Positions 1 through 10,879 of a stretch of 10,879 nt of DNA are shown piece by piece. The stretch lies in the UHGV virus genome UHGV-0120148; one strand, written 5' to 3'. Under the pieces are notes generated by a model. It saw only the letters and a list, made by a program, of their open reading frames with translations. It did not search any database and had not been told where the DNA came from. The translations under genes and the position numbers were made by a program. This DNA comes from a virus. Numbering within the stretch: the first letter of the stretch is position 1; each line of letters opens with the position of its first letter.

Positions 1-1
1 T

Positions 2-529
2 GCTGATGGCGTGAAAATCGGAGTGAACAAGGTGGTTTCTCAGTGGATTAGCCAGGACAGCTTAACATTAGCTAAAACAGCTAATAAAACATTAGCCAAG
101 TCGGCTAATGGGTATAAGCCAAGTCAGCTAAACACAAAAGACAATATACAAAAGACAATAAATACAAATACCCCCTTACCCCCTAACGGGGGAGGCGATG
201 GGCAGGTTAAACCTGAACGTCGCAAGGCAGAACGCATCGACTACGAATCCTTCCTGAACGCCTACAACACCGAAGTCGGTGACAGACTTCCACACGCTGT
301 TGCGGTCAACGAGAAACGAAAACGCCGCCTGAAGAAAATCATCCCGCAACTGAAAACGCCAAACGTGGACGGTTTCAGAGCGTATGTCAGGGCGTTTGTG
401 CATCAGGCCAAGCCGTTTTACTTCGGAGACAACGACACGGGCTGGACGGCAGATTTTGATTACCTGCTGAGGGAAGATTCGTTAACGGGAGTTCGGGAAG
501 GGAAGTTTGCAGACAGGGGGATTGCATGA
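2..529 (+). CDS. Replication initiator (lambda O / P22 gene 18-like), C-terminal part; 5' end lies upstream of the window
   Basis: Frame is open from the window edge (ORF track starts at GTG 11). Ori-type iterons and an AT-rich tract sit inside the coding sequence, followed by a Pro/Gly/Thr linker and a conserved C-terminal domain. The stop overlaps the helicase start (ATGA at 526-529), as in the P22 gene 18/12 arrangement. Confidence 0.75.
48..175. repeat. Phage origin of replication: four iterons (about 17-18 bp, dyad-symmetric TTAGCC...GCTAA) followed by an AT-rich tract
   Basis: Direct repeats at about 48-65, 68-84, 92-108 and 115-131 (ttagccaggacagcttaa / ttagctaaaacagctaa / ttagccaagtcggctaa / taagccaagtcagctaa), spaced 20-24 bp apart, then an A-rich tract at 132-175. 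Same architecture as ori-lambda inside gene O, but a different iteron sequence. Confidence 0.6.
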
Positions 530-1902
530 AACAGGATATCGAAGCGAGCGTTATCGGTGGCCTGCTGATTGGTGGATTAACACCAATTGCCAGTGACGTT
601 CTGGCAACGCTTGAGCCGGAAGCGTTTTCAATACCGCTCTACCGGAAAGCCTTCGAGGTTATCCGCAAGCAGGCGCGAAACAGAAACCTAATCGACGCGC
701 TGATGGTTGCCGAGGCGTGCGGAGAGGAGCATTTCACGTCAATCCTGATGACCAGCAAAAACTGCCCGAGTTCCGCAAACCTGAAGGGATATGCCGGAAT
801 GGTCGCGGATAACTATCACCGCCGTCTGGTGCTGGAAATCATGGATGAAATGCGTGAACCAATTCAGAGCGGAACCATCGACGCATCGAGTCAGGCGATG
901 GATGAACTTGTAAAGCGTCTTTCAGCCATCAGAAAGCCCCGTGACGAGGTTAAACCTGTACGGTTAGGGGAAATCATAACTGACTACACTGACACGCTTG
1001 ACAGGCGTCTGAGGAACGGAGAAGAGTCCGATACCCTGAAGACCGGAATCGAAGAACTTGACGCTATCACCGGAGGGATGAACGCGGAAGACCTGGTGAT
1101 AATCGCCGCTCGTCCTGGTATGGGGAAAACCGAACTGGCGCTGAAGATTGCCGAAGGCGTTGCAAGCCGCGTTATTCCTGGTTCTGACGTCCGGCGCGGA
1201 GTGTTGATTTTTTCGATGGAAATGAGCGCATTGCAGATTGCAGAGCGGAGCATTGCCAACGCCGGGAGGATGTCGGTTAGCGTGCTGCGAAATCCTGCAT
1301 CGATGGATGACGAAGGCTGGGCGCGTGTTGCTAACGGCATGAGTCAGCTTGCAGATTTGGATGTATGGGTAGTCGATGCCTCGCGGTTATCGGTCGAAGA
1401 AATACGCTCAATCGCAGAACGGCACAAACAGGAAAATCCAAACCTGTCACTCATCATGGCGGATTATCTTGGCCTGATTGAGAAGCCGAAAGCAGACCGT
1501 AACGACCTCGCAATTGCTCACATCTCAGGAAGCCTGAAGGCGATGGCGAAAGACCTGAAAACGCCTGTTATCTCCCTGAGTCAGCTTTCGCGCGATGTTG
1601 AGAAGCGACCAAACAAACGCCCGACAAACGCAGATTTGCGTGATTCAGGAAGCATTGAACAGGACGCAGACTCAATCATCATGCTCTATCGGGAAGCGGT
1701 ATATGACGAGAACAGTAGCGCCGCGCCATTTGCTGAAATCATCGTGACGAAAAACCGTTTTGGCTCGCTTGGTACGGTTTACCAGCGATTCTGCAACGGA
1801 CACTTTGTTGCATGTGACCAAGACGAAGCCAGACAGATTTGCACAGCATCAAATGCACCTGCTGCGCGTGGCAGACGATATGCACAAGGGGCTGACGTAT
1901 GA
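526..1902 (+). CDS. DnaB-family replicative DNA helicase (P22 gene 12-like), 458 aa
   Basis: Walker A motif [14 protein letters not shown] and DnaB-like C-terminal ATPase region; 458 aa; start overlaps the upstream initiator stop; sits in the position of lambda P. Confidence 0.88.
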
Positions 1903-1927
1903 CCATCTACATCACTGAGCTAATAAC

Positions 1928-1959
1928 AGGCCTGCTGGTAATCGCAGGCCTTTTTATTT
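1928..1959 (+). terminator. Rho-independent terminator, tR2-like
   Basis: Perfect 8-bp stem aggcctgc / gcaggcct with loop tggtaatc, followed by tttttattt, between the helicase stop and ninB as in lambda. Confidence 0.75.
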
Positions 1960-1975
1960 GGGGGAGAGGGAAGTC

Positions 1976-2416
1976 ATGAAAAAACTAACCTTTGAAATTC
2001 GATCTCCAGCACATCAGCAAAACGCTATTCACGCAGTACAGCAAATTCTTCCAGACCCAACCAAACCAATCGTAGTAACCATTCAGGAACGCAACCGCAG
2101 CTTAGACCAAAACAGGAAGCTATGGGCCTGCTTAGGTGACGTCTCTCGTCAGGTTGAATGGCATGGTCGCTGGCTGGATGCAGAAAGCTGGAAGTGTGTG
2201 TTTACCGCAGCATTAAAGCAGCAGGATGTTGTTCCTAACCTTGCCGGGAATGGCTTTGTGGTAATAGGCCAGTCAACCAGCAGGATGCGTGTAAGCGAAT
2301 TTGCGGAGCTATTAGAGCTTATACAGGCATTCGGTACAGAGCGTGGCGTTAAGTGGTCGGACGAAGCGCGACTGGCTCTCGAATGGAAAGCGCGATGGGG
2401 AGACAGGGCGGCATGA
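1976..2416 (+). CDS. ninB: NinB recombination protein (146 aa)
   Basis: Protein [28 protein letters not shown]... matches lambda NinB from recall. RBS gggagaggg lies 6 nt upstream of ATG 1976; the ORF-track start at 1958 is a TTG upstream extension. Confidence 0.9.
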
Positions 2417-2589
2417 GACGACAGCGACGAAGTATCACCGACATCATCTGCGAAAACTGCAAATACCTTCCAACGAAACGCTCCAGAAATAAACCCAAGC
2501 CAATCCCAAAAGAATCTGACGTAAAAACCTTCAATTACACGGCTCACCTGTGGGATATCCGGTGGCTAAGACATCGTGCGAGGAAATAA
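2413..2589 (+). CDS. ninE: NinE-family small basic protein (58 aa)
   Basis: [58 protein letters not shown]; resembles nin-region NinE proteins (K-RKP...YTA-L-D--WLR motif, from recall of DLP12 NinE). ATG overlaps the ninB stop (ATGA). Assignment as NinE rather than NinD is from recall and not certain. Confidence 0.6.
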
Positions 2590-2591
2590 CA

Positions 2592-2993
2592 ATGCTTTTA
2601 ATTCAACCTGGATTTGGCCTTAGCATCAAAAAAGGGCACATGTTTGGCGAGAAAGAGTCTCAACGAAAAATGGTGTCGATACAGTTGCCATTTATCAGTA
2701 TTTATTGGCTAAACAGGGAGGCAACAAATTATTGGTATACATGCGCCAGAGCAGCATTTAACGACCCTGACTGGTTTGTGAAAAACCACCACGCAGTTCG
2801 TCAGGCAAAGAGAAAGGCCAATACGACATACATGAAGGCGTATCGAAAAGCATGGAAAGAACACCGCGATCGATACCAACAAGACATGGAAAAGCTTGAA
2901 TCAGAAAACATGGAATTAAGACGAAAGCTTGGTGAAGCAAAACGAGACATTGATGCTTACAAGCGACTTTTTAATGGTGAAAGCCATGCTTAG
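2592..2993 (+). CDS. Hypothetical nin-region protein (133 aa), basic with C-terminal coiled-coil; not part of the lambda nin set
   Basis: ORF in the position P22 occupies with ninX (between ninE and ninF). RBS gagga precedes ATG 2592; the ORF-track start at 2550 lies inside ninE and is rejected. AT-richer 5' half; C-terminus KRKANTTYMKAYRKAWKEHRDRYQQDMEKLESENMELRRKLGEAKRDIDAYKRLF looks like a basic region plus heptad repeat. Start could also be a downstream Met. Confidence 0.5.
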   Translation: MLLIQPGFGLSIKKGHMFGEKESQRKMVSIQLPFISIYWLNREATNYWYTCARAAFNDPDWFVKNHHAVRQAKRKANTTYMKAYRKAWKEHRDRYQQDMEKLESENMELRRKLGEAKRDIDAYKRLFNGESHA

Positions 2994-3162
2994 TCCATCC
3001 CAATCCCTTCAATACCAGAAAGAAAGCGTCGAGCGGGCTTTAACGTGCGCTAACTGCGGTCAGAAGCTGCATGTGCTGGAAGTTCACGTGTGCTCCGATT
3101 GCTGCGCAGAACTGATGAGCGATCCGAATAGCTCAATGTACGAGGAAGAAGACGATGGCTAA
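2986..3162 (+). CDS. ninF: NinF (58 aa, Cys-rich)
   Basis: [58 protein letters not shown] matches lambda NinF from recall; start overlaps the upstream ORF by 8 nt. Confidence 0.85.
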
Positions 3163-3763
3163 ACCAGCGCGAAGACGATGTAAAAACGAAGAATGTCGGG
3201 AATGGTTTCACCCTGCATTCGCCAATCAGTGGTGGTGCTCTCCAGAGTGTGGAACCAAGATAGCACTCGAACGACGAAGCAAAGAACGCGAAAAAGCGGA
3301 AAAGGCAGCAGAGAAGAAACGACGAGAGGAGCAGAAACAGAAAGATAAACTTAAGATTCGAAAACTCGCCTTAAAGCCCCGCAGTTACTGGATTAAACAA
3401 GCCCAACAAGCCGTAAACGCCTTCATCAGAGAAAGAGACCGCGACTTACCATGTATCTCGTGCGGAACGCTCACGTCTGCTCAGTGGGATGCCGGACATT
3501 ACCGGACAACTGCTGCGGCACCTCAACTCCGATTTGATGAACGCAATATTCACAAGCAATGCGTGGTGTGCAACCAGCACAAAAGCGGAAATCTCGTTCC
3601 GTATCGCGTCGAACTGATTAATCGCATCGGGCAGGAAGCAGTAGACGAAATCGAATCAAACCATAACCGCCATCGCTGGACTGTCGAAGAGTGCAGGGCC
3701 ATCAAGGCGGAGTATCAGCAGAAACTCAAAGACCTGCGAAACAGCAGAAGTGAGGCCGCATGA
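3155..3763 (+). CDS. ninG: NinG / Rap recombination-associated protein (202 aa)
   Basis: Near-identical to lambda NinG from recall ([22 protein letters not shown]..., Cys clusters); ATG overlaps the ninF stop. Confidence 0.9.
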
Positions 3764-3966
3764 CGTTCTCAGTAAAAACCATTCCAGACATGCTCGTTGA
3801 AGCATACGGAAACCAGACAGAAGTAGCACGCAGACTGAAATGTAGTCGCGGTACGGTCAGAAAATACGTTGATGATAAAGACGGGAAAATGCACGCCATC
3901 GTCAACGACGTTCTCATGGTTCATCGCGGATGGAGTGAAAGAGATGCGCTATTACGAAAGAATTGA
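3760..3966 (+). CDS. ninH: NinH (68 aa, HTH DNA-binding)
   Basis: [37 protein letters not shown]... matches lambda NinH from recall; ATGA overlap with the ninG stop. Confidence 0.9.
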
Positions 3967-4609
3967 TGGCAGCAAATACCGAAATATTTGGGTAGCTGGC
4001 GATCTGCACGGATGCTACACGAACCTGATGAACAAACTGGATACGATTGGATTCGACAACAAAAAAGACCTGCTTATCTCGGTGGGCGATTTGGTTGATC
4101 GTGGTGCAGAGAACGTTGAATGCCTGGAATTAATCACATTCCCCTGGTTCAGAGCTGTACGTGGAAACCATGAGCAAATGATGATTGATGGCTTATCAGA
4201 GCGTGGAAACGTTAATCACTGGCTGCTTAATGGCGGTGGCTGGTTCTTTAATCTCGATTACGACAAAGAAATTCTGGCTAAAGCTCTTGCCCATAAAGCA
4301 GATGAACTTCCGTTAATCATCGAACTGGTGAGCAAAGATAAAAAATATGTCATCTGCCACGCCGATTATCCTTGTGACGAATACGAGTTTGGAAAGCCAG
4401 TTGATCATCAGCAGGTAATCTGGAACCGCGAACGAATCAGCAACTCACAAAACGGGATCGTGAAAGAAATCAAAGGCGCGGACACGTTCATCTTTGGTCA
4501 TACGCCAGCAGTGAAACCACTCAAGTTTGCCAACCAAATGTATATCGATACCGGCGCAGTGTTCTGCGGAAACCTAACATTGATTCAGGTACAGGGAGAA
4601 GGCGCATGA
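3944..4609 (+). CDS. ninI: NinI Ser/Thr protein phosphatase (221 aa)
   Basis: Metallophosphatase motifs GDLHG, GDLVDRG and GNHE; matches lambda NinI starting at [12 protein letters not shown] 3944 has RBS ggagtgaaagag; the ORF-track start at 3869 is an upstream extension overlapping ninH. Confidence 0.9.
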
Positions 4610-5229
4610 GACTCGAAAGCGTAGCTAAATTTCATTCGCCAAAAAGCCCGATGATGAGCGACTCACCACGGGCCACGGCTTCTGACTCTCTTTCCGGTAC
4701 TGATGTGATGGCTGCTATGGGGATGGCACAATCACAAGCCGGATTCGGGATGGCTGCATTTTGCGGTAAGCACGAACTCAGCCAGAACGACAAACAAAAG
4801 GCTATCAACTATCTGATGCAATTTGCACACAAGGTATCGGGGAAATACCGTGGTGTGGCAAAGCTCGAAGGAAATACTAAGGCAAAGGTACTGCAAGTGC
4901 TCGCAACATTCGCTTATGCGGATTATTGCCGTAGTGCCGCGACGCCGGGCGCAAGATGCAGAGATTGCCACGGTACAGGTCGTGCGGTTGATATAGCAAA
5001 AACAGAGCAGTGGGGGAGAGTTGTCGAGAAAGAGTGCGGAAGATGCAAAGGCGTCGGCTATTCAAGAATGCCAGCAAGCGCTGCATATCGCGCTGTAACG
5101 ATGCTAATCCCAAACCTTACTCAACCCACCTGGTCACGCACTGTTAAGCCGCTGTATGACGCTCTGGTGGTGCAATGCCACAAAGAAGAGTCAATCGCAG
5201 ACAACATTTTGAATGCGGTCACACGTTAG
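4606..5229 (+). CDS. Q: Late-gene antiterminator Q (207 aa)
   Basis: Essentially lambda Q ([31 protein letters not shown]..., zinc-binding CRDCHGTG...CGRCKGVG); ATGA overlap with the ninI stop. Confidence 0.93.
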
Positions 5230-5272
5230 CAGCATGATTGCCACGGATGGCAACATATTAACGGCATGATAT

Positions 5273-5301
5273 TGACTTTTTGAATAAAGTTGGGTAAATT
5301 T
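5273..5301 (+). promoter_or_regulatory. Late promoter PR' (-35 TTGACT, 17-bp spacer, -10 TAAATT), with the qut region immediately downstream
   Basis: ttgactttttgaataaagttgggtaaatt matches the lambda PR' region from recall; sits just downstream of Q. Confidence 0.7.
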
Positions 5302-5442
5302 GACCAAACGATGGGTTAATTCGCTCGTTGTGGTAGTGAGATGAAAAGAGGCGGCGCTTACTACCGATTCCGCCTAGTTGGTCACTTCGACGTATCGTCT
5401 GGAACTCCAACCATCGCAGGCTGAGAGGTCTGCAAATGCAAT

Positions 5443-5502
5443 CCCGAAACAGTTCGCAGGTAATAGTTAGAGCCTGCGCAACGGTTTCTGGATTTTTTAT
5501 TT
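5443..5502 (+). terminator. tR' terminator (3' end of the 6S late leader RNA)
   Basis: Long imperfect hairpin cccgaaacagttcgcagg...cctgcgcaacggtttctgg followed by attttttattt, about 190 nt downstream of the PR' start, as in lambda. Confidence 0.7.
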
Positions 5503-5574
5503 GGGTCAGTCGTATAAAGGTCATTACGGAAGGCTGTTAACCTTCTTATCGTGGTTCGAGTCCACGCTGCCCCC
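5503..5574 (+). tRNA. tRNA-like gene, anticodon GTT (Asn) by hand fold; atypical (one acceptor-stem mismatch, no encoded CCA); possibly a pseudo-tRNA
   Basis: Hand fold: acceptor gggtcag/ctgcccc (6 of 7 pairs), D-loop with GG, anticodon stem gaagg/ccttc with loop ctGTTaa, T-stem cgtgg/ccacg with T-loop ttcgagt (TTCRANY consensus). Confidence 0.4.
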
Positions 5575-5583
5575 TCCAAATAT

Positions 5584-5659
5584 GCTGGTTTAGCTCCAAT
5601 GGTAGAGCAGTCGCCTTGTAAGCGAATGGGTAGCGGTTCAAGTCCGTTAACCAGCACCA
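5584..5659 (+). tRNA. tRNA, anticodon TGT (Thr) by hand fold, with encoded CCA
   Basis: Perfect 7-bp acceptor stem gctggtt/aaccagc, D-arm gctc-caatggta-gagc, anticodon loop ctTGTaa, T-stem agcgg/ccgtt with T-loop ttcaagt, discriminator A plus CCA. Confidence 0.6.
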
Positions 5660-5777
5660 TTACTGAGCCGTAGCCACTGGCTATTCTGAATTCATCAGTG
5701 ATAGTTATGCTGCGGCCTTCTTTTTTCCCCTTCCCAATATAAGAACTACGCAATCCGTTACTGGCGGAGGCGTTGCT

Positions 5778-5993
5778 ATGAAATCAATGGACAAAATCTC
5801 AACTGGCATTGCCTACGGAACATCCGCTGGTAGTGCGGGATACTGGTTTTTACAGTGGTTGGATCAGGTCAGTCCATCACAGTGGGCTGCGATTGGGGTG
5901 CTTGGAAGCCTTGTGTTGGGTTTTCTCACCTATCTGACAAATCTGTACTTCAAAATCAGAGAAGACAGAAGAAAGGCTGCGAGAGGTGAATAA
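5778..5993 (+). CDS. S: Holin S, phage-21-type pinholin (71 aa) with dual-start motif
   Basis: [71 protein letters not shown] matches S21 from recall; Met1 and Met4 give the antiholin/holin dual start; two TMDs; RBS ggagg. Confidence 0.88.
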
Positions 5994-6490
5994 TGCCTCC
6001 ATCATTACGAAAAGCCGTTGCTGCGGCTATTGGTGGCGGGGCTATTGCTATAGCATCTGTGTTAATCACTGGCCCAAGTGGTAACGATGGTCTGGAAGGT
6101 GTGAGACATAATCCTTACAAAGACATAGTTGGTGTATGGACTGTATGTTACGGGCATACAGGAAAAGACATCATTCCCGGTAAAACGTATACCGAAGCAG
6201 AGTGCAAAGCCCTCCTGAATAAAGACCTTGCCACTGTCGCCAGACAAATTAACCCGTACATCAAAGTCGATATACCGGAAACAACGCGCGGCGCTCTTTA
6301 CTCGTTCGTCTACAACGTGGGTGCTGGCAATTTCAGAACATCGACGCTTCTTCGCAAAATCAACCAGGGCGATATCAAAGGCGCATGTGACCAGCTACGT
6401 CGCTGGACATACGCTGGCGGTAAGCAATGGAAAGGGCTGATGACTCGCCGTGAGATTGAGCGTGAAGTCTGTTTGTGGGGGCAACAATGA
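5993..6490 (+). CDS. R: SAR endolysin R (phage-21-type lysozyme, 165 aa)
   Basis: N-terminal Gly/Ala-rich signal-anchor-release domain [20 protein letters not shown] followed by a T4-lysozyme-like catalytic region; start overlaps the S stop (TAATG). Confidence 0.88.
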
Positions 6491-6951
6491 GCAGGGTAAC
6501 CGCGATTATCTCCGCTCTGGTTATCTGCATCATCGTCTGCCTGTCATGGGCTGTTAATCATTACCGTGATAACGCCATTACCTACAAAGCCCAGCGCGAC
6601 AAAAATGCCAGAGAACTGAAGCTGGCGAACGCGGCAATTACTGACATGCAGATGCGTCAGCGTGATGTTGCTGCGCTCGATGCAAAATACACGAAGGAGT
6701 TAGCTGATGCGAAAGCTGAAAATGATGCTCTGCGTGATGATGTTGCCGCTGGTCGTCGTCGGTTGCACATCAAAGCAGTCTGTCAGTCAGTGCGTGAAGC
6801 CACCACCGCCTCCGGCGTGGATAATGCAGCCTCCCCCCGACTGGCAGACACCGCTGAACGGGATTATTTCACCCTCCGGGAACGACTGGTAATGATGCAG
6901 GCCCAACTTGAAGGTGCTCAGCAATACATAACCGAGCAGTGTTTAAAGTAA
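6487..6951 (+). CDS. Rz: Rz i-spanin (154 aa)
   Basis: N-terminal TMD followed by a coiled-coil periplasmic domain; ATG 6487 overlaps the R stop (ATGA). The ORF-track start at 6475 is an upstream extension. Confidence 0.85.
6707..6892 (+). CDS. Rz1: Rz1 o-spanin lipoprotein (61 aa), embedded in Rz in the +1 frame
   Basis: Lipoprotein signal with lipobox LVVVGC, proline-rich mature part ([15 protein letters not shown]), entirely inside Rz. Confidence 0.8.
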
Positions 6952-7088
6952 AATCTTAACTACAATATGATTCATTTTGATGATTGTTTCATAAGGAACA
7001 GTGAAGTAAGATCTAAGAGGAGTTAAATTTTATACAGTATAATCATAATATTGCAGCAAGGTGGTTATAATTGAAAGAATATTTAGAT

Positions 7089-8546
7089 ATGAATACATCT
7101 CATGTAAGAGTTGTTACTCATATGTGTGGGTTCCTGGTTTGGCTCTATAGTCTTTCAATGTTGCCACCAATGGTTGTAGCATTGTTTTATAAAGAAAAAA
7201 GCCTGTTCGTTTTCTTTATAACTTTCGTTATATTTTTTTGCATTGGTGGCGGAGCGTGGTATACAACTAAGAAATCTGGCATTCAATTACGTACCCGTGA
7301 TGGGTTTATTATAATTGTAATGTTTTGGATTTTGTTTTCTGTTATTAGTGCATTCCCTTTATGGATTGACTCAGAACTTAATTTAACGTTCATTGATGCT
7401 CTGTTTGAAGGGGTTTCTGGAATAACAACAACAGGAGCAACTGTAATTGATGATGTTAGTTCATTACCTCGGGCATATTTGTACTATCGGTCACAGTTAA
7501 ATTTTATAGGTGGTTTAGGAGTTATTGTTCTGGCGGTTGCTGTATTGCCATTATTGGGTATTGGTGGTACAAAGCTTTATCAGTCAGAAATGCCGGGGCC
7601 ATTTAAGGATGACAAACTCACTCCCCGCCTGGCCGATACGTCACGGACACTGTGGATAACTTATTCTTTATTAGGTATTGCTTGTATTGTCTGTTATAGA
7701 CTTGCAGGAATGCCTTTGTTTGATGCTATTTGTCACGGGATTTCCACAGTTTCGCTTGGTGGTTTCTCAACTCATAGCGAGAGTATCGGATATTTTAATA
7801 ACTATTTGGTTGAGCTGGTGGCTGGTTCTTTTTCCCTGCTATCGGCTTTCAACTTCACTCTTTGGTATATTGTTATTAGCAGGAAAACGATAAAACCTTT
7901 AATCAGAGATATTGAACTTCGTTTCTTTCTGTTAATAGCCTTAGGGGTGATCATTGTTACCTCTTTCCAGGTCTGGCATATAGGTATGTATGACTTGCAT
8001 GGAAGTTTTATTCATTCGTTTTTTCTTGCCAGCTCCATGCTCACTGATAATGGTTTAGCTACGCAGGATTATGCAAACTGGCCCACGCACACGATAGTGT
8101 TTTTGCTGTCGTCAAGTTTCTTTGGGGGATGTATAGGTTCAACTTGTGGTGGAATTAAGTCACTTCGATTTCTTATACTTTTCAAACAAAGCAAACACGA
8201 GATAAATCAGCTTTCTCATCCCAGAGCGTTGTTGAGTGTAAATGTAGGAGGGAAGATAGTTACAGATCGTGTAATGAGGTCTGTATGGAGTTTCTTTTTT
8301 CTTTATACTCTCTTCACGGTGTTTTTTATACTGGTGTTAAATGGTATGGGATATGATTTTCTTACATCATTTGCAACAGTGGCTGCATGTATTAATAATA
8401 TGGGATTAGGTTTTGGGGCTACTGCATCGTCATTCGGAGTGCTTAATGACATTGCAAAATATTTAATGTGCATAGCTATGATTCTTGGTCGCCTTGAAAT
8501 TTATCCTGTTATTATATTGTTTTCAGGTTTTTTTTGGCGCTCCTAA
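7089..8546 (+). CDS. trkG: TrkG/TrkH-family potassium uptake membrane protein (485 aa); prophage moron
   Basis: Polytopic membrane protein matching E. coli Rac-prophage TrkG from MNTSHVRVVTHMCGFLV... Strongly AT-rich relative to the flanking phage genes. An alternative TTG start at 7071 (6 codons upstream) has a better-placed RBS (aaggtgg). Confidence 0.88.
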   Translation: MNTSHVRVVTHMCGFLVWLYSLSMLPPMVVALFYKEKSLFVFFITFVIFFCIGGGAWYTTKKSGIQLRTRDGFIIIVMFWILFSVISAFPLWIDSELNLTFIDALFEGVSGITTTGATVIDDVSSLPRAYLYYRSQLNFIGGLGVIVLAVAVLPLLGIGGTKLYQSEMPGPFKDDKLTPRLADTSRTLWITYSLLGIACIVCYRLAGMPLFDAICHGISTVSLGGFSTHSESIGYFNNYLVELVAGSFSLLSAFNFTLWYIVISRKTIKPLIRDIELRFFLLIALGVIIVTSFQVWHIGMYDLHGSFIHSFFLASSMLTDNGLATQDYANWPTHTIVFLLSSSFFGGCIGSTCGGIKSLRFLILFKQSKHEINQLSHPRALLSVNVGGKIVTDRVMRSVWSFFFLYTLFTVFFILVLNGMGYDFLTSFATVAACINNMGLGFGATASSFGVLNDIAKYLMCIAMILGRLEIYPVIILFSGFFWRS

Positions 8547-8632
8547 TATATGGCTGATTTATAATTGTGAGTTTAATATTATATTGACTCACTCATTGAT
8601 CCAATACCTAACTTTACCAGCAACACCTCCGC

Positions 8633-8664
8633 CCCCAGTAGCACTGGCTGCTGGGGTGCGTTTT
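8633..8664 (+). terminator. Possible intrinsic terminator downstream of trkG
   Basis: 10-bp stem ccccagtagc / gctgctgggg (one G-U pair) with loop actg, followed by tgcgttttatt; the T-run is offset 4 nt from the stem, so this is weak. Confidence 0.3.
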
Positions 8665-8683
8665 ATTCATAAAGCAAGGCTGT

Positions 8684-9115
8684 ATGAGCGAGAAATTAAA
8701 GATAGTCTATCGCCCATTACAAGAATTGTCACCGTATGCGCACAACGCCAGGACGCACAGTACTGAGCAGGTGGCACAACTGGTAGAAAGTATTAAGCAA
8801 TTCGGCTGGACTAATCCGGTGCTGATTGACGAAAAGGGCGAAATTATTGCGGGTCACGGTCGTGTTATGGCGGCTGAAATGCTCAAAATGGATTCTGTTC
8901 CGGTCATTGTTCTGTCTGGCCTGACGGATGAGCAGAAAAAGGCGTACCGCCTGGCAGATAATCGCCTACCGATGAATGCTGGCTGGGATGAAGATCTGTT
9001 GCGGATGGAGCTGTCGGACCTAATCAATGCTGATTTTGATGTCTCCCTGACAGGCTTCGGCCCGACAGAAATTGATGAACTGTTGACGGATGTTTTGCCC
9101 GGTATCGGGCCTTAA
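8684..9115 (+). CDS. ParB-like nuclease domain protein (143 aa), probably a truncated N-terminal part of a larger protein
   Basis: ParB/Srx-like N-terminal domain features (IIAGHGRVMAA, RLADN) and the ...SLTGFGPTEIDELL linker that in phage ParB-methyltransferase fusions precedes a methylase domain; here the ORF stops about 15 codons later, 3 nt from the convergent tfa stop. Confidence 0.65.
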   Translation: MSEKLKIVYRPLQELSPYAHNARTHSTEQVAQLVESIKQFGWTNPVLIDEKGEIIAGHGRVMAAEMLKMDSVPVIVLSGLTDEQKKAYRLADNRLPMNAGWDEDLLRMELSDLINADFDVSLTGFGPTEIDELLTDVLPGIGP

Positions 9116-9118
9116 TTT

Positions 9119-9646
9119 TTACTCTGGTTTTTGTGGCCATTCAGGATTTGCCGTATCCACACGGCTGACCAGAACACTGTAGCGTTCCCATGCTTCCAGT
9201 CGTGTGCGTTCCTCGTCTGTTGCCATATTCAGCCTGACAGCGCGCTCCAGCGGCAAAATTACGGATTCAGCTTCGGAAAGCAAAGCTGCCTTCTGTAATT
9301 CCGCCTGTTGTTGCTGTTCATCTGCCGTATAAATCCGTTTAACCACAGCTCCGTCCCTAAACATCCACTTACTGGAATCATCAGCGCAGCGGTTGGCTGT
9401 AATATCTGGAACCTCAACGACGCTATAACCTTCAGGGTTAAGCGTGGAGGCATCTTTGGTGATGGCGACAATAATATTATTTGCATCGTAAACAATCTTT
9501 ATTGTGTCTGGCTGAAAGTTTTTCACTTCCTCATACCAGTTTTTTCCGTCTTCGGACCATAACCAGATAACATCAAAATTCTTTGTTAGCTGATATTGTT
9601 CTTTTGTTTTTGGATTTCCAGACTTAATATTTTTTAAATGCTGCAT
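9119..9646 (-). CDS. tfa: Tail fibre assembly protein (Tfa / Mu U' type, 175 aa)
   Basis: C-terminal conserved Tfa motif ...[25 protein letters not shown]...; located immediately downstream of the tail-fibre variable segment on the same strand. Confidence 0.8.
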
Positions 9647-9649
9647 AAA

Positions 9650-10654
9650 TTACACCTGTACGACGTTATACCATGTGCCATTGATGTATTTTTGTATTGG
9701 TCTGAATACTGCCGGATCATCGCCATCAACTGCACCGATAATGCCAAGCCCCGTAATTGCATGACCTGATTTCTCATACATCACGCCTTTTTGCATAGTC
9801 TGAACAACACGTGTACCAAGTCGGACATCTCTCACATAACGTGAGTCAAAATTACCATAATTGCCGGGAATAACTTGCGCACCGCAAAGCCAGTTGCCAT
9901 TGTTGTCCATGTACGCCTGACCATCGGTGCCATTGGCTGTCCTTGAGTTATTAATCATGTAGATGCCAAATTGCTTATTCCCCAGTCCACCAATCATAAA
10001 TTTGCGATCAGCGTGGTCCTGACGAAGTAATGCCTGCGCACCATCGGTGGATACCGCATTGCGTCCCAAAATAACATTCTGGTCACGCATATGAATCCAC
10101 ATGCCGGTACTACTGTTAATTGCAAAACGGTTTGCAAATATATCCCCTGTAACATCAAGACCATGCCCCATGCTTATCCGACCAGTTCTGAGATTAAGCG
10201 TAAAGGGGCGTAGTGGCCCTATATCACCATTTTCTCCCTCATTCTCTCGTGTAGGGATGATATGCAGGCATTCTTCAGAACGACGAAAAATAGCACCAAA
10301 AGATGAATTAAATATCCTCAGTGCATTGACTGTCGATATTTTTACTTCACTGCTGAAAAGGGCTTTAACAAGGACAGACAAAGCATCCCATTTAAGAGTC
10401 ATCAGGTCTTTTGTTGTGGTGCTCTGGCGGCTTCTCCATTTGAAATATTCATTGCCGTTGTCGCCTGTTTCAAACCACATGTATGAATCAGTGTCGCTGT
10501 CGGCATTATTTTTAAAACCAATCTTTGCCCAGTCAGTATTTCTAATCCAGGCAAGGATTGAGTCGTTTTCAAAAGTAAGCCCACCGGACAAGGTATCGCC
10601 ATTCTTTTGCACGGCGTTCCTGGCCCTGTTTACCGTTTCCTGTAAACCGAGGTT
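9650..10654 (-). CDS. Tail fibre protein, variable C-terminal segment (Sv'-type) lacking the constant N-terminal part; silent cassette
   Basis: Open frame on the minus strand runs from inside the gix-like site (encoding NLGLQETVNRARNA, as in Mu/P1/e14 tail-fibre junctions) to the stop at 9650. No start codon or N-terminal constant domain is present; the ORF-track start at 10612 is an internal GTG. Gly/Asn-rich, fibre-like composition. Confidence 0.7.
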   Translation of the reverse strand, partial: NLGLQETVNRARNAVQKNGDTLSGGLTFENDSILAWIRNTDWAKIGFKNNADSDTDSYMWFETGDNGNEYFKWRSRQSTTTKDLMTLKWDALSVLVKALFSSEVKISTVNALRIFNSSFGAIFRRSEECLHIIPTRENEGENGDIGPLRPFTLNLRTGRISMGHGLDVTGDIFANRFAINSSTGMWIHMRDQNVILGRNAVSTDGAQALLRQDHADRKFMIGGLGNKQFGIYMINNSRTANGTDGQAYMDNNGNWLCGAQVIPGNYGNFDSRYVRDVRLGTRVVQTMQKGVMYEKSGHAITGLGIIGAVDGDDPAVFRPIQKYINGTWYNVVQV

Positions 10655-10662
10655 TTAGATAA
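10637..10662. other. Site-specific inversion crossover site (gix/pix-like, 26 bp) for a Gin/Pin-family invertase
   Basis: ttcctgtaaaccgaggttttagataa differs at one position from the Mu gix site as I recall it (TTCCTGTAAACCGAGGTTTTGGATAA); positioned between the 5' end of the silent tail-fibre segment and the invertase gene. Confidence 0.7.
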
Positions 10663-10716
10663 TGGCGGTTTCTGGCCTGCATGGCATGATTTGTGCTTTT
10701 GGACGGGAGATTCAGC

Positions 10717-10842
10717 GTGCTGATTGGCTATGTAAGGGTATCAACAAATGACCAGAATACAGACCTGCAACGAAACGCTCTTGTTTGTGCAGGATGTGAA
10801 CAAATATTTGAAGATAAATTAAGCGGGCACTGTTGCAAATAG
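10717..10842 (+). pseudogene. pin: Pin/Gin-family DNA invertase, N-terminal fragment (about 37 native codons) interrupted by IS26
   Basis: Translation [37 protein letters not shown] matches the serine-recombinase N-terminus of Pin/Gin (catalytic Ser in YVRVSTNDQ); the frame then reads into the IS26 inverted repeat and stops (HCCK*). Start appears to be GTG. Confidence 0.8.
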
Positions 10843-10879
10843 TCGGTGGTGATAAACTTATCATCCCCTTTTGCTGATG
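10826..10879 (+). mobile_element. IS26 (IS6 family), left terminal inverted repeat and first about 54 bp; continues beyond the window
   Basis: ggcactgttgcaaatagtcggtggtgataaacttatcatccccttttgctgatg matches the IS26 left end from recall, beginning with the 14-bp IR GGCACTGTTGCAAA; tnpA itself lies beyond the window. Confidence 0.85.

Follow-up and report, generated by a model that had tools for sequence, protein, structure and literature searches.

An IS26 junction in a Gin/Pin-type invertase remnant at the edge of a degraded lambda/Rac-like prophage fragment

Introduction

One-sided junctions, adjacent deletions and cointegrates are established behaviour of IS26, a member of the IS6 family. 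In monophasic Salmonella, an IS26-associated truncation of the invertase gene hin has been described together with its phenotype (PMC7384650, PMC11047700). In hin, a 65-bp Fis-dependent enhancer lies about 100 bp from hix, within the 5' coding region of the invertase (PMC3798978). Here we analyse a DNA stretch of 10,879 bp (the window) that ends in a comparable arrangement. The window is the entire contig NODE_3147 (10,879 bp, coverage 3.1x) of the ENA metagenome assembly ERZ1756014. Its right end is very likely an inherited, one-sided IS26 junction, referred to here as J1, in the remnant of a Gin/Pin-type invertase gene at the edge of a degraded lambda/Rac-like prophage fragment. We found no paper on this particular junction in the literature.

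Results

The 14-bp terminal inverted repeat of IS26 (GGCACTGTTGCAAA) is located at 10826-10839 and has no other exact copy within the window, where about 0.14 matches are expected by chance with 2 mismatches tolerated. Starting with this repeat, the last 54 nt (10826..10879, plus strand) are the left, transposase-proximal end of IS26 (IRL): they correspond to nt 1-54 of a complete IS26 cut from a relative, with 54/54 positions identical. This reference element comprises 820 bp with perfect 14-bp repeats at both ends and encodes a 234-aa transposase. The left-end sequence matched at 100% in thousands of records (E. coli genomes and plasmids), where it is annotated as IS26 transposase element. 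Since the tnp26 ATG is nt 64 of the reference, the transposase gene would begin 10 nt beyond the window end. The original prediction, which had placed the left inverted repeat at 10826 and the transposase gene about 10 bp past the end of the window, was correct in both respects. In every complete J1 relative that we read, IS26 is present as a full 820-bp copy.

Invertase-derived DNA stops at 10825, after 36 codons and base 1 of codon 37. Gly37 is retained because IS26 begins with GG, and the junction is ambiguous by 1 nt because the G at 10826 is common to IS26 and the uninterrupted allele. As predicted, IS26 cuts the invertase frame at 10826: the frame runs into the element and, after 37 residues, continues with HCCK followed by a stop codon. 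The resulting 41-aa product thus ends 4 codons into IS26, and the exact fusion peptide is encoded by six contigs.

The sequence in front of the junction (10717..10825, plus strand) is the 5' remnant of a Gin/Pin/Hin-family serine DNA invertase gene, as judged from its translation, its identity to Gin and its Pfam match. Translation starts with a GTG at 10717, preceded by GGGAG at 10705-10709, and the catalytic-serine motif YVRVSTNDQ comprises residues 5-13. All 37 residues of the stub are identical to Mu Gin (PDB 4M6F), and Pfam PF00239 (Resolvase) was detected above its cut-off with 33.3 bits; a search of NCBIfam assigned no informative family to the stub, to the tail-fibre part or to tfa. 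A complete invertase of about 190 aa, with oligomerisation helix and C-terminal helix-turn-helix, is not present, 36 codons being left. In nucleotide comparisons, 10560-10826 reaches 92.6% identity to Mu, in an alignment that runs from the end of S' over the annotated boundary of the G segment into the start of gin; identities of 95-97% were obtained with D108 and with several other Mu-like or P2-like phages. The retained 37 aa do not separate members of the invertase family; downstream of the junction the uninterrupted allele reads LSGIRTGRPGLKRALK, versus ISGTKSERPGLKKLLR in pinE of E. coli LF3-1. Its host elements occupy the lambda attachment site (att-lambda) or the Rac locus, or are carried by plasmids; none lies in e14. 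As a generic label 'pin' is fair, but nothing links the remnant to e14, and it resides in a defective prophage of the lambda/Rac-like type.

A gix/pix-type crossover site, TTCCTGTAAACCGAGGTTTTAGATAA, was found once on the plus strand at 10637..10662 (one match versus 0 expected). It marks where a former invertible tail-fibre segment ended on the right, and 25 of its 26 positions are identical to the Mu site lying across the annotated G-segment boundary. A second crossover site was not detected in the window at up to 8 mismatches, and a search of the window for inverted repeats gave weak, chance-like pairs of 71-82% and no sizeable one. The minus strand encodes an S'v-like variable C-terminal tail-fibre part (9650..10651; PF21446, Gp34_trimer), which lacks an N-terminal constant part; its frame passes out through the crossover site, and in relatives it is annotated as 'phage tail protein, missing N-terminus'. 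Beside it, on the same strand, lies a U'/tfa-like tail-fibre assembly gene (9119..9646; PF02413, Caudo_TAP, 123.8 bits) with a patch of 15 SNPs at 9245-9320 compared to all relatives. Upstream of the tfa gene are trkG (7071-8546) and, directly adjacent, a ynaK-like gene with a ParB_N domain (8684-9115). Inside trkG, at 8370-8383 on the minus strand, we noted a 13/14 match to the IS26 terminal repeat, GCCACTGTTGCAAA, which is most likely a chance match (0.14 expected with 2 mismatches). In C. freundii CP022274, the tail-fibre fragment contains a Tn5403-like Tn3-family transposon (5528-9191 of the CP022274 stretch), inserted at the position corresponding to window 9907-9913 with duplication of 7 nt of window sequence; the extracted locus L008 has this insertion as well.

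The constant tail-fibre part and other tail genes are absent from the window. Because of the Mu-like boundary, the crossover site and the S'v-like and tfa genes, the region is the right half of an invertible tail-fibre cassette of the G/P-segment type. As inversion requires two sites in inverted orientation, the switch had been dismantled already, independently of the condition of the invertase. The truncation at J1 is without functional effect on DNA inversion because the 41-aa product lacks the DNA-binding domain and most of the catalytic domain, and because there is one crossover site. An insertion of IS26 that locks a tail-fibre inversion switch, as originally proposed, is therefore not supported: with one crossover site and no constant part there was nothing to invert.

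J1 was detected, at 100% identity over 280 nt, in at least 15 complete records, comprising E. coli chromosomes and plasmids of E. coli, Citrobacter and Klebsiella. The E. coli chromosomes are TC24, AREA_C483, LR536431 and 1218KP. Among E. coli plasmids it is carried by pABWA45_1, the 303-kb plasmids of the 0H series, the 454-kb plasmid of ATCC 98082 and pRHBSTW-00531_2, and it was also found on plasmids of C. freundii, K. michiganensis and K. quasipneumoniae (in two pieces). The replicon types of the J1 plasmids differ (IncF; IncFIB+IncHI1B; IncA+IncFII). Window positions 6467-9244 and 9321-10879 are 100% identical to the J1 records. A scan of 185,579 species-representative genomes with the exact 40-nt junction gave 0 matches.

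All J1 records have in common a defective lambda/Rac-like prophage fragment, which in the window extends over 6273..10825 (plus strand) and comprises the 3' part of rrrD, Rz, trkG, the ynaK-like ParB_N gene, tfa, S'v and the invertase remnant. Compared to the J1 records, the fragment is 99.4% identical overall and 100% identical outside two SNP clusters; of the 26 differences in the shared part, 11 are in rrrD (6313-6466) and 15 in tfa (9245-9320). Among recorded contigs, the tfa protein in exactly this form is encoded by NODE_3147 (ERZ1756014) alone, which is the window itself. At window position 6273, the J1 records have a DUF1317/rrrD' deletion in place of the left part of the window. This left 6.2 kb (1-6272) is a complete lambdoid replication/nin/Q/lysis region; it encodes replication functions, a DnaB-like helicase, NinB/F/G/H, a phosphatase, Q, a holin and a full lysozyme, and it is 96-97% identical to other lambdoid prophages. 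It is joined to J1 in no complete record, and no record covers at least 80% of the window. The left part and the SNP mosaic would be explained either by recombination with another lambdoid prophage or by a strain-chimeric assembly at 3x coverage. In passing, we noted that Stenotrophomonas maltophilia and Paenibacillus sonchi have 'plasmid' records of 48,499 bp with about 98% identity to E. coli lambdoid phage; these are probably lambda-like contamination or spike-in.

An assembly artefact, in which an IS26 end was misjoined to prophage DNA in a low-coverage metagenome and the junction did not exist in the sample, is extremely unlikely. Coverage is 3.1x, the contig ends 54 nt into a high-copy repeat, and both the left part and the SNP patch in tfa look mosaic. 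However, the identical junction and its flanks are found in many independently finished genomes and plasmids, long-read assemblies included, and a contig end just inside a repeat is where short-read (de Bruijn) assemblers typically stop and no sign of a false join.

We compared J1 with alleles that IS26 has not interrupted. Window 10600-10879 was matched over at least 80% of its length by 222 of 5,426 complete E. coli genomes; 12 of these records carry J1, and the others listed are 100% identical up to 10826 only. In E. coli 99-3165, 027_SK3 and I4 the lambda attachment site is occupied by the element as a prophage, with ybhC as neighbour at the int side (99-3165) and ybhB/bioA at the other side. 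Exact GCTTTTTTATACTAA cores are located at both prophage ends in 99-3165, and the internal DUF1317/rrrD' deletion of all J1 records is also found in 027_SK3 and I4. Over window 6273-10826, the 26 positions at which the J1 records differ from the window differ likewise in 027_SK3, and I4 has 29 differences. As cargo, the att-lambda prophage has a gene for a sensor diguanylate cyclase, which lies between its invertase remnant and attR (extracted-locus coordinates 12518-13849 in L010 and 5418-6749 in L016).

In 99-3165, 027_SK3, I4 and E89 the invertase gene continues with KLSGIRTGRPGLKRALKRLQKGDALVVWKLD and then reaches a TGA at codon 65. After about codon 77, the uninterrupted sequence is fused to the last roughly 30 codons of a tail-fibre assembly gene. 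The 64-aa product is annotated as 'recombinase family protein' (WP_001378636.1), and the degenerate arrangement is at least 80% complete in 268 or more E. coli genomes. Because uninterrupted copies of the same prophage carry the 64-codon pseudogene, the invertase was most likely dead before IS26 arrived, and IS26 would have shortened a pseudogene. None of the plasmid-borne copies has invertase sequence beyond nt 153, and the right end of the prophage (3' part of the invertase, tfa fragment, diguanylate cyclase and attR) was found on no PLSDB plasmid; it is thus from chromosomal copies that we take the gene to have been a pseudogene when IS26 acted on it. The original prediction had attributed the inactivation to IS26, a role that does not fit uninterrupted copies which already have the TGA at codon 65.

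We then analysed the sequences on the far side of IS26. The 8-bp target expected for a simple insertion, ATTAAGCG, adjoins the element at 10818..10825 (plus strand). None of the complete J1 records that we read shows an 8-bp target duplication, that is, ATTAAGCG after IS26, and none has the 3' remainder of the invertase beside IS26. A synthetic reciprocal junction (IS26 IRR end, ATTAAGCG and invertase continuation) found no full match to this sequence in 5,426 E. coli genomes and 72,556 plasmids, the sole full-length match being the unrelated pinE junction in LF3-1. J1 is therefore not a simple IS26 insertion, since its relatives have neither target duplication nor 3' remainder nor reciprocal junction; the original prediction had suggested looking beyond the window for the duplication and for the remainder of pin or its absence. 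The right flank of IS26 reads TTCAACAG in pABWA45_1, 0H26 and RHBSTW-00531, CCGAAAAG in TC24, AATCCTTG in C. freundii and GTTATTAA in K. michiganensis. Three of these four flanks are nested, progressively deeper, in one Tn3-family element, with end points upstream of tnpR (K. michiganensis), 839 bp into an S43-type tnpA fragment (pABWA45_1, 0H26 and RHBSTW-00531) and 12 bp further (TC24). Such retention of one junction and erosion of the other side is the pattern expected of intramolecular replicative transposition of IS26, and the relatives thus agree with the alternative given in the original prediction, an IS26-mediated rearrangement or deletion.

Beyond IS26, relatives have a truncated Tn3-family transposase gene, an IncFII-type repA, parDE, parG and more IS26 copies, or other transposon sequence; overall, the region is a large, IS-rich mosaic. 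In the stretches of relatives that we read, no resistance gene is adjacent to J1. For ABWA45, resistance determinants have been reported on pABWA45_3 only and not on the J1-bearing pABWA45_1 (PMC5571413). The IS26-bounded resistance region suspected beyond the window accordingly has no counterpart next to J1 in these relatives, and pABWA45_1 is reported to be without resistance genes (PMC5571413).

These data bear on the reading that a recent simple transposition of IS26 into a functional pin froze a working switch, with the 8-bp duplication and the 3' part of pin just beyond IS26 or beyond an IS26-bounded resistance unit. In its favour, the junction does exist and its 5' part of the gene is intact, with 37 aa identical to Mu Gin; comparable cases are the IS26-associated truncation of hin in monophasic Salmonella (PMC7384650) and E. 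coli LF3-1, where IS26 with TnAs3 and a class 1 integron lies against the 3' 151 codons of pinE. However, uninterrupted copies of the allele are pseudogenes, one crossover site is present and the constant part of the tail fibre is missing, the complete relatives read show neither duplication nor 3' remainder, the reciprocal junction was found in 0 of 5,426 genomes and 0 of 72,556 plasmids, and pABWA45_1 carries no resistance genes. A simple insertion is thus largely refuted already, and we consider it very unlikely.

How the prophage came to lie on plasmids is indicated by its other end. In J1 records, the int end of the prophage adjoins a Dps-family gene instead of ybhC, and the breakpoint is located exactly at the att core. 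The occupied plasmid att site reads CACGCCTC-AAATTTTTATAATAA-GTTGGCATT (P' arm), and was also read as CACGCCTC-AAATTTTTATAATAA-GTTGGCATTATAAAAAAGC, while the empty site in pCFR-9161 reads AAATTTTTATAATAA-CGGGGTTTGAGG. The 15-mer AAATTTTTATAATAA matches the lambda core at 11/15 positions; in extracted-locus coordinates, the plasmid core lies at 6750-6764 in L011, about 5850-5864 in L001 and 3101-3115 in L023. The Dps flank is present on about 189 plasmids of Klebsiella, Citrobacter, Escherichia, Enterobacter and Raoultella, and most of them, among the matches listed, stop at the end of the 15-mer; many plasmids of these genera have the empty site. E. coli 0H strains contain an occupied 303-kb plasmid and a 69-kb plasmid with the empty site together. 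The plasmid site is the signature of Int-mediated integration at a secondary att site, followed by IS26-mediated loss of the right end.

The same invertase remnant is also involved in a second IS26 junction (J2), at nt 153 and with IS26 in opposite orientation, which is carried by S43, AH04 and the E. kobei mcr-10 plasmid pMCR10_SCLZS19 (extracted-locus coordinates 12228-13480 in pMCR10_SCLZS19, 16018-16987 in L011 and 5018-5987 in L015). The latter plasmid in addition has an ISEc68 at invertase nt 135 with a TTAA duplication. J2 keeps more invertase sequence than J1 and therefore cannot come from J1. On paper, J1 might derive from J2 by one inversion and one deletion; we do not claim this order, since K. 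michiganensis keeps Tn3-family sequence that is missing from S43. A further junction was found on the chromosome of E. coli LF3-1 (6000-6530 of the LF3-1 chromosome stretch), where the 3' 151 codons of pinE adjoin an IS26 at the border of a TnAs3/class 1 integron (intI1) region. This junction lies at most 1 bp from the J1-equivalent position, and the gene is clearly divergent downstream.

Three IS26 junctions (J1 at nt 109, J2 at nt 153 and LF3-1 pinE) thus fall within about 50 nt of invertase genes, in a part that carries the sharply bent, Fis-bound recombinational enhancer in characterised family members. A geometry like that of hin would put an enhancer at roughly 10750-10830, and a loose post hoc scan for G-N13-C gave candidates at invertase nt 94-108 and 140-154 and no pair at the expected spacing. 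If the 5' 100-155 nt of Gin/Pin/Hin-family invertase genes were a preferred target of IS26, DNA bent by nucleoid proteins would steer its target choice, which could help to explain the repeated IS26 insertions around hin in Salmonella. We regard such a preference as very doubtful, and the LF3-1 match carries an ascertainment bias because the query detects junctions at that position only.

It is likewise highly unlikely that the junction of the window arose anew, by an independent IS26 insertion at a hot-spot nucleotide. Three distinct IS26 junctions in the first 155 nt of invertase genes would fit recurrence, as would an upstream sequence that differs from all J1 records (two SNP clusters and the left 6.2 kb). 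However, 1.56 kb of the window (9321-10879) is 100% identical to the J1 records with a base-exact junction, and the differences are accounted for more simply by inheritance with recombination further upstream, or by a chimeric assembly; the LF3-1 match, moreover, stems from a query limited to this position and is biased accordingly.

Discussion

The history of the locus may be reconstructed as follows. The defective prophage would normally reside at att-lambda in E. coli, between ybhC and ybhB-bioA, and would have lost its tail genes, half of the invertible segment and most of the invertase gene before IS26 was involved. By lambda-type Int recombination, it may then have entered a plasmid-borne secondary att site beside a Dps-family gene. 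IS26 copies in the surrounding mosaic region could have attacked the invertase remnant by replicative transposition, with formation of a cointegrate or as an intramolecular adjacent deletion. Such an event would have removed the right end of the prophage and fused IRL to invertase nt 109 without target duplication. The left junction was then presumably copied unchanged, together with the module, into E. coli chromosomes and plasmids of several genera, whereas the IRR side may have been remodelled further by adjacent deletions and IS26-IS26 exchanges. Both the order of events and the mechanism are inferred, the latter from the pattern of the junctions, and the arrangement in K. michiganensis indicates a history more complex than a simple series.

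J1 represents a known type of feature, an ordinary IS26 scar that has been widely copied and sits on a degraded fragment of a prophage. Its biological weight is little, as there is no effect on tail-fibre switching and no demonstrated link to resistance genes. The J1 records do form a clean natural series in which IS26 keeps one junction and erodes the other side. The junction sequence, GAAGATAAATTAAGCG followed by GGCACTGTTGCAAATAG, is in addition a stable marker of a prophage-derived module (trkG, ParB_N gene and tail-fibre remnants) that is found on large IncF, IncHI1B and IncA-type plasmids of Escherichia, Citrobacter and Klebsiella and on E. coli chromosomes. For annotation, a truncated 'recombinase family protein' beside IS26 need not mean that function was lost at that point.

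Among known systems, the Mu G segment with gin (AF083977) shares with the window an arrangement in which the invertase gene comes after S'v- and U'-like genes of the opposite strand, residues 1-37 of Gin, a crossover site identical at 25/26 positions and 92.6% DNA identity. Unlike Mu, the window keeps the right half of the segment, without the left crossover site and Sc/Sv/U; its invertase is cut to 36 codons, and its host is a lambdoid prophage remnant with trkG. Rac-type prophages are also similar: the run of rrrD, Rz, trkG, ynaK, tfa, tail fragment and invertase remnant occurs at the Rac locus of E89 beside pinR, ydfK and uspF. However, this copy is only 97.5% identical, and the copies that are 100% identical to the 1.5 kb proximal to the junction sit at att-lambda or on plasmids.

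With respect to IS26, J1 shares with known one-sided junctions the exact terminus without 8-bp duplication, one conserved side with nested deletions opposite, and many IS26 copies in the same mosaic region; we detected no mechanistic difference. The fljAB-hin region of monophasic Salmonella 4,[5],12:i:- likewise has an IS26-rich region by a truncated Hin/Gin-family invertase, with variable deletions (PMC7384650; PMC11047700). There, a working phase-variation switch was destroyed and the phenotype altered, whereas at J1 the invertible segment had ceased to function before, as most likely had the invertase, and the element is a plasmid-borne fragment of a prophage. Since its target was most likely a relic by then, J1 would have had no functional consequence.
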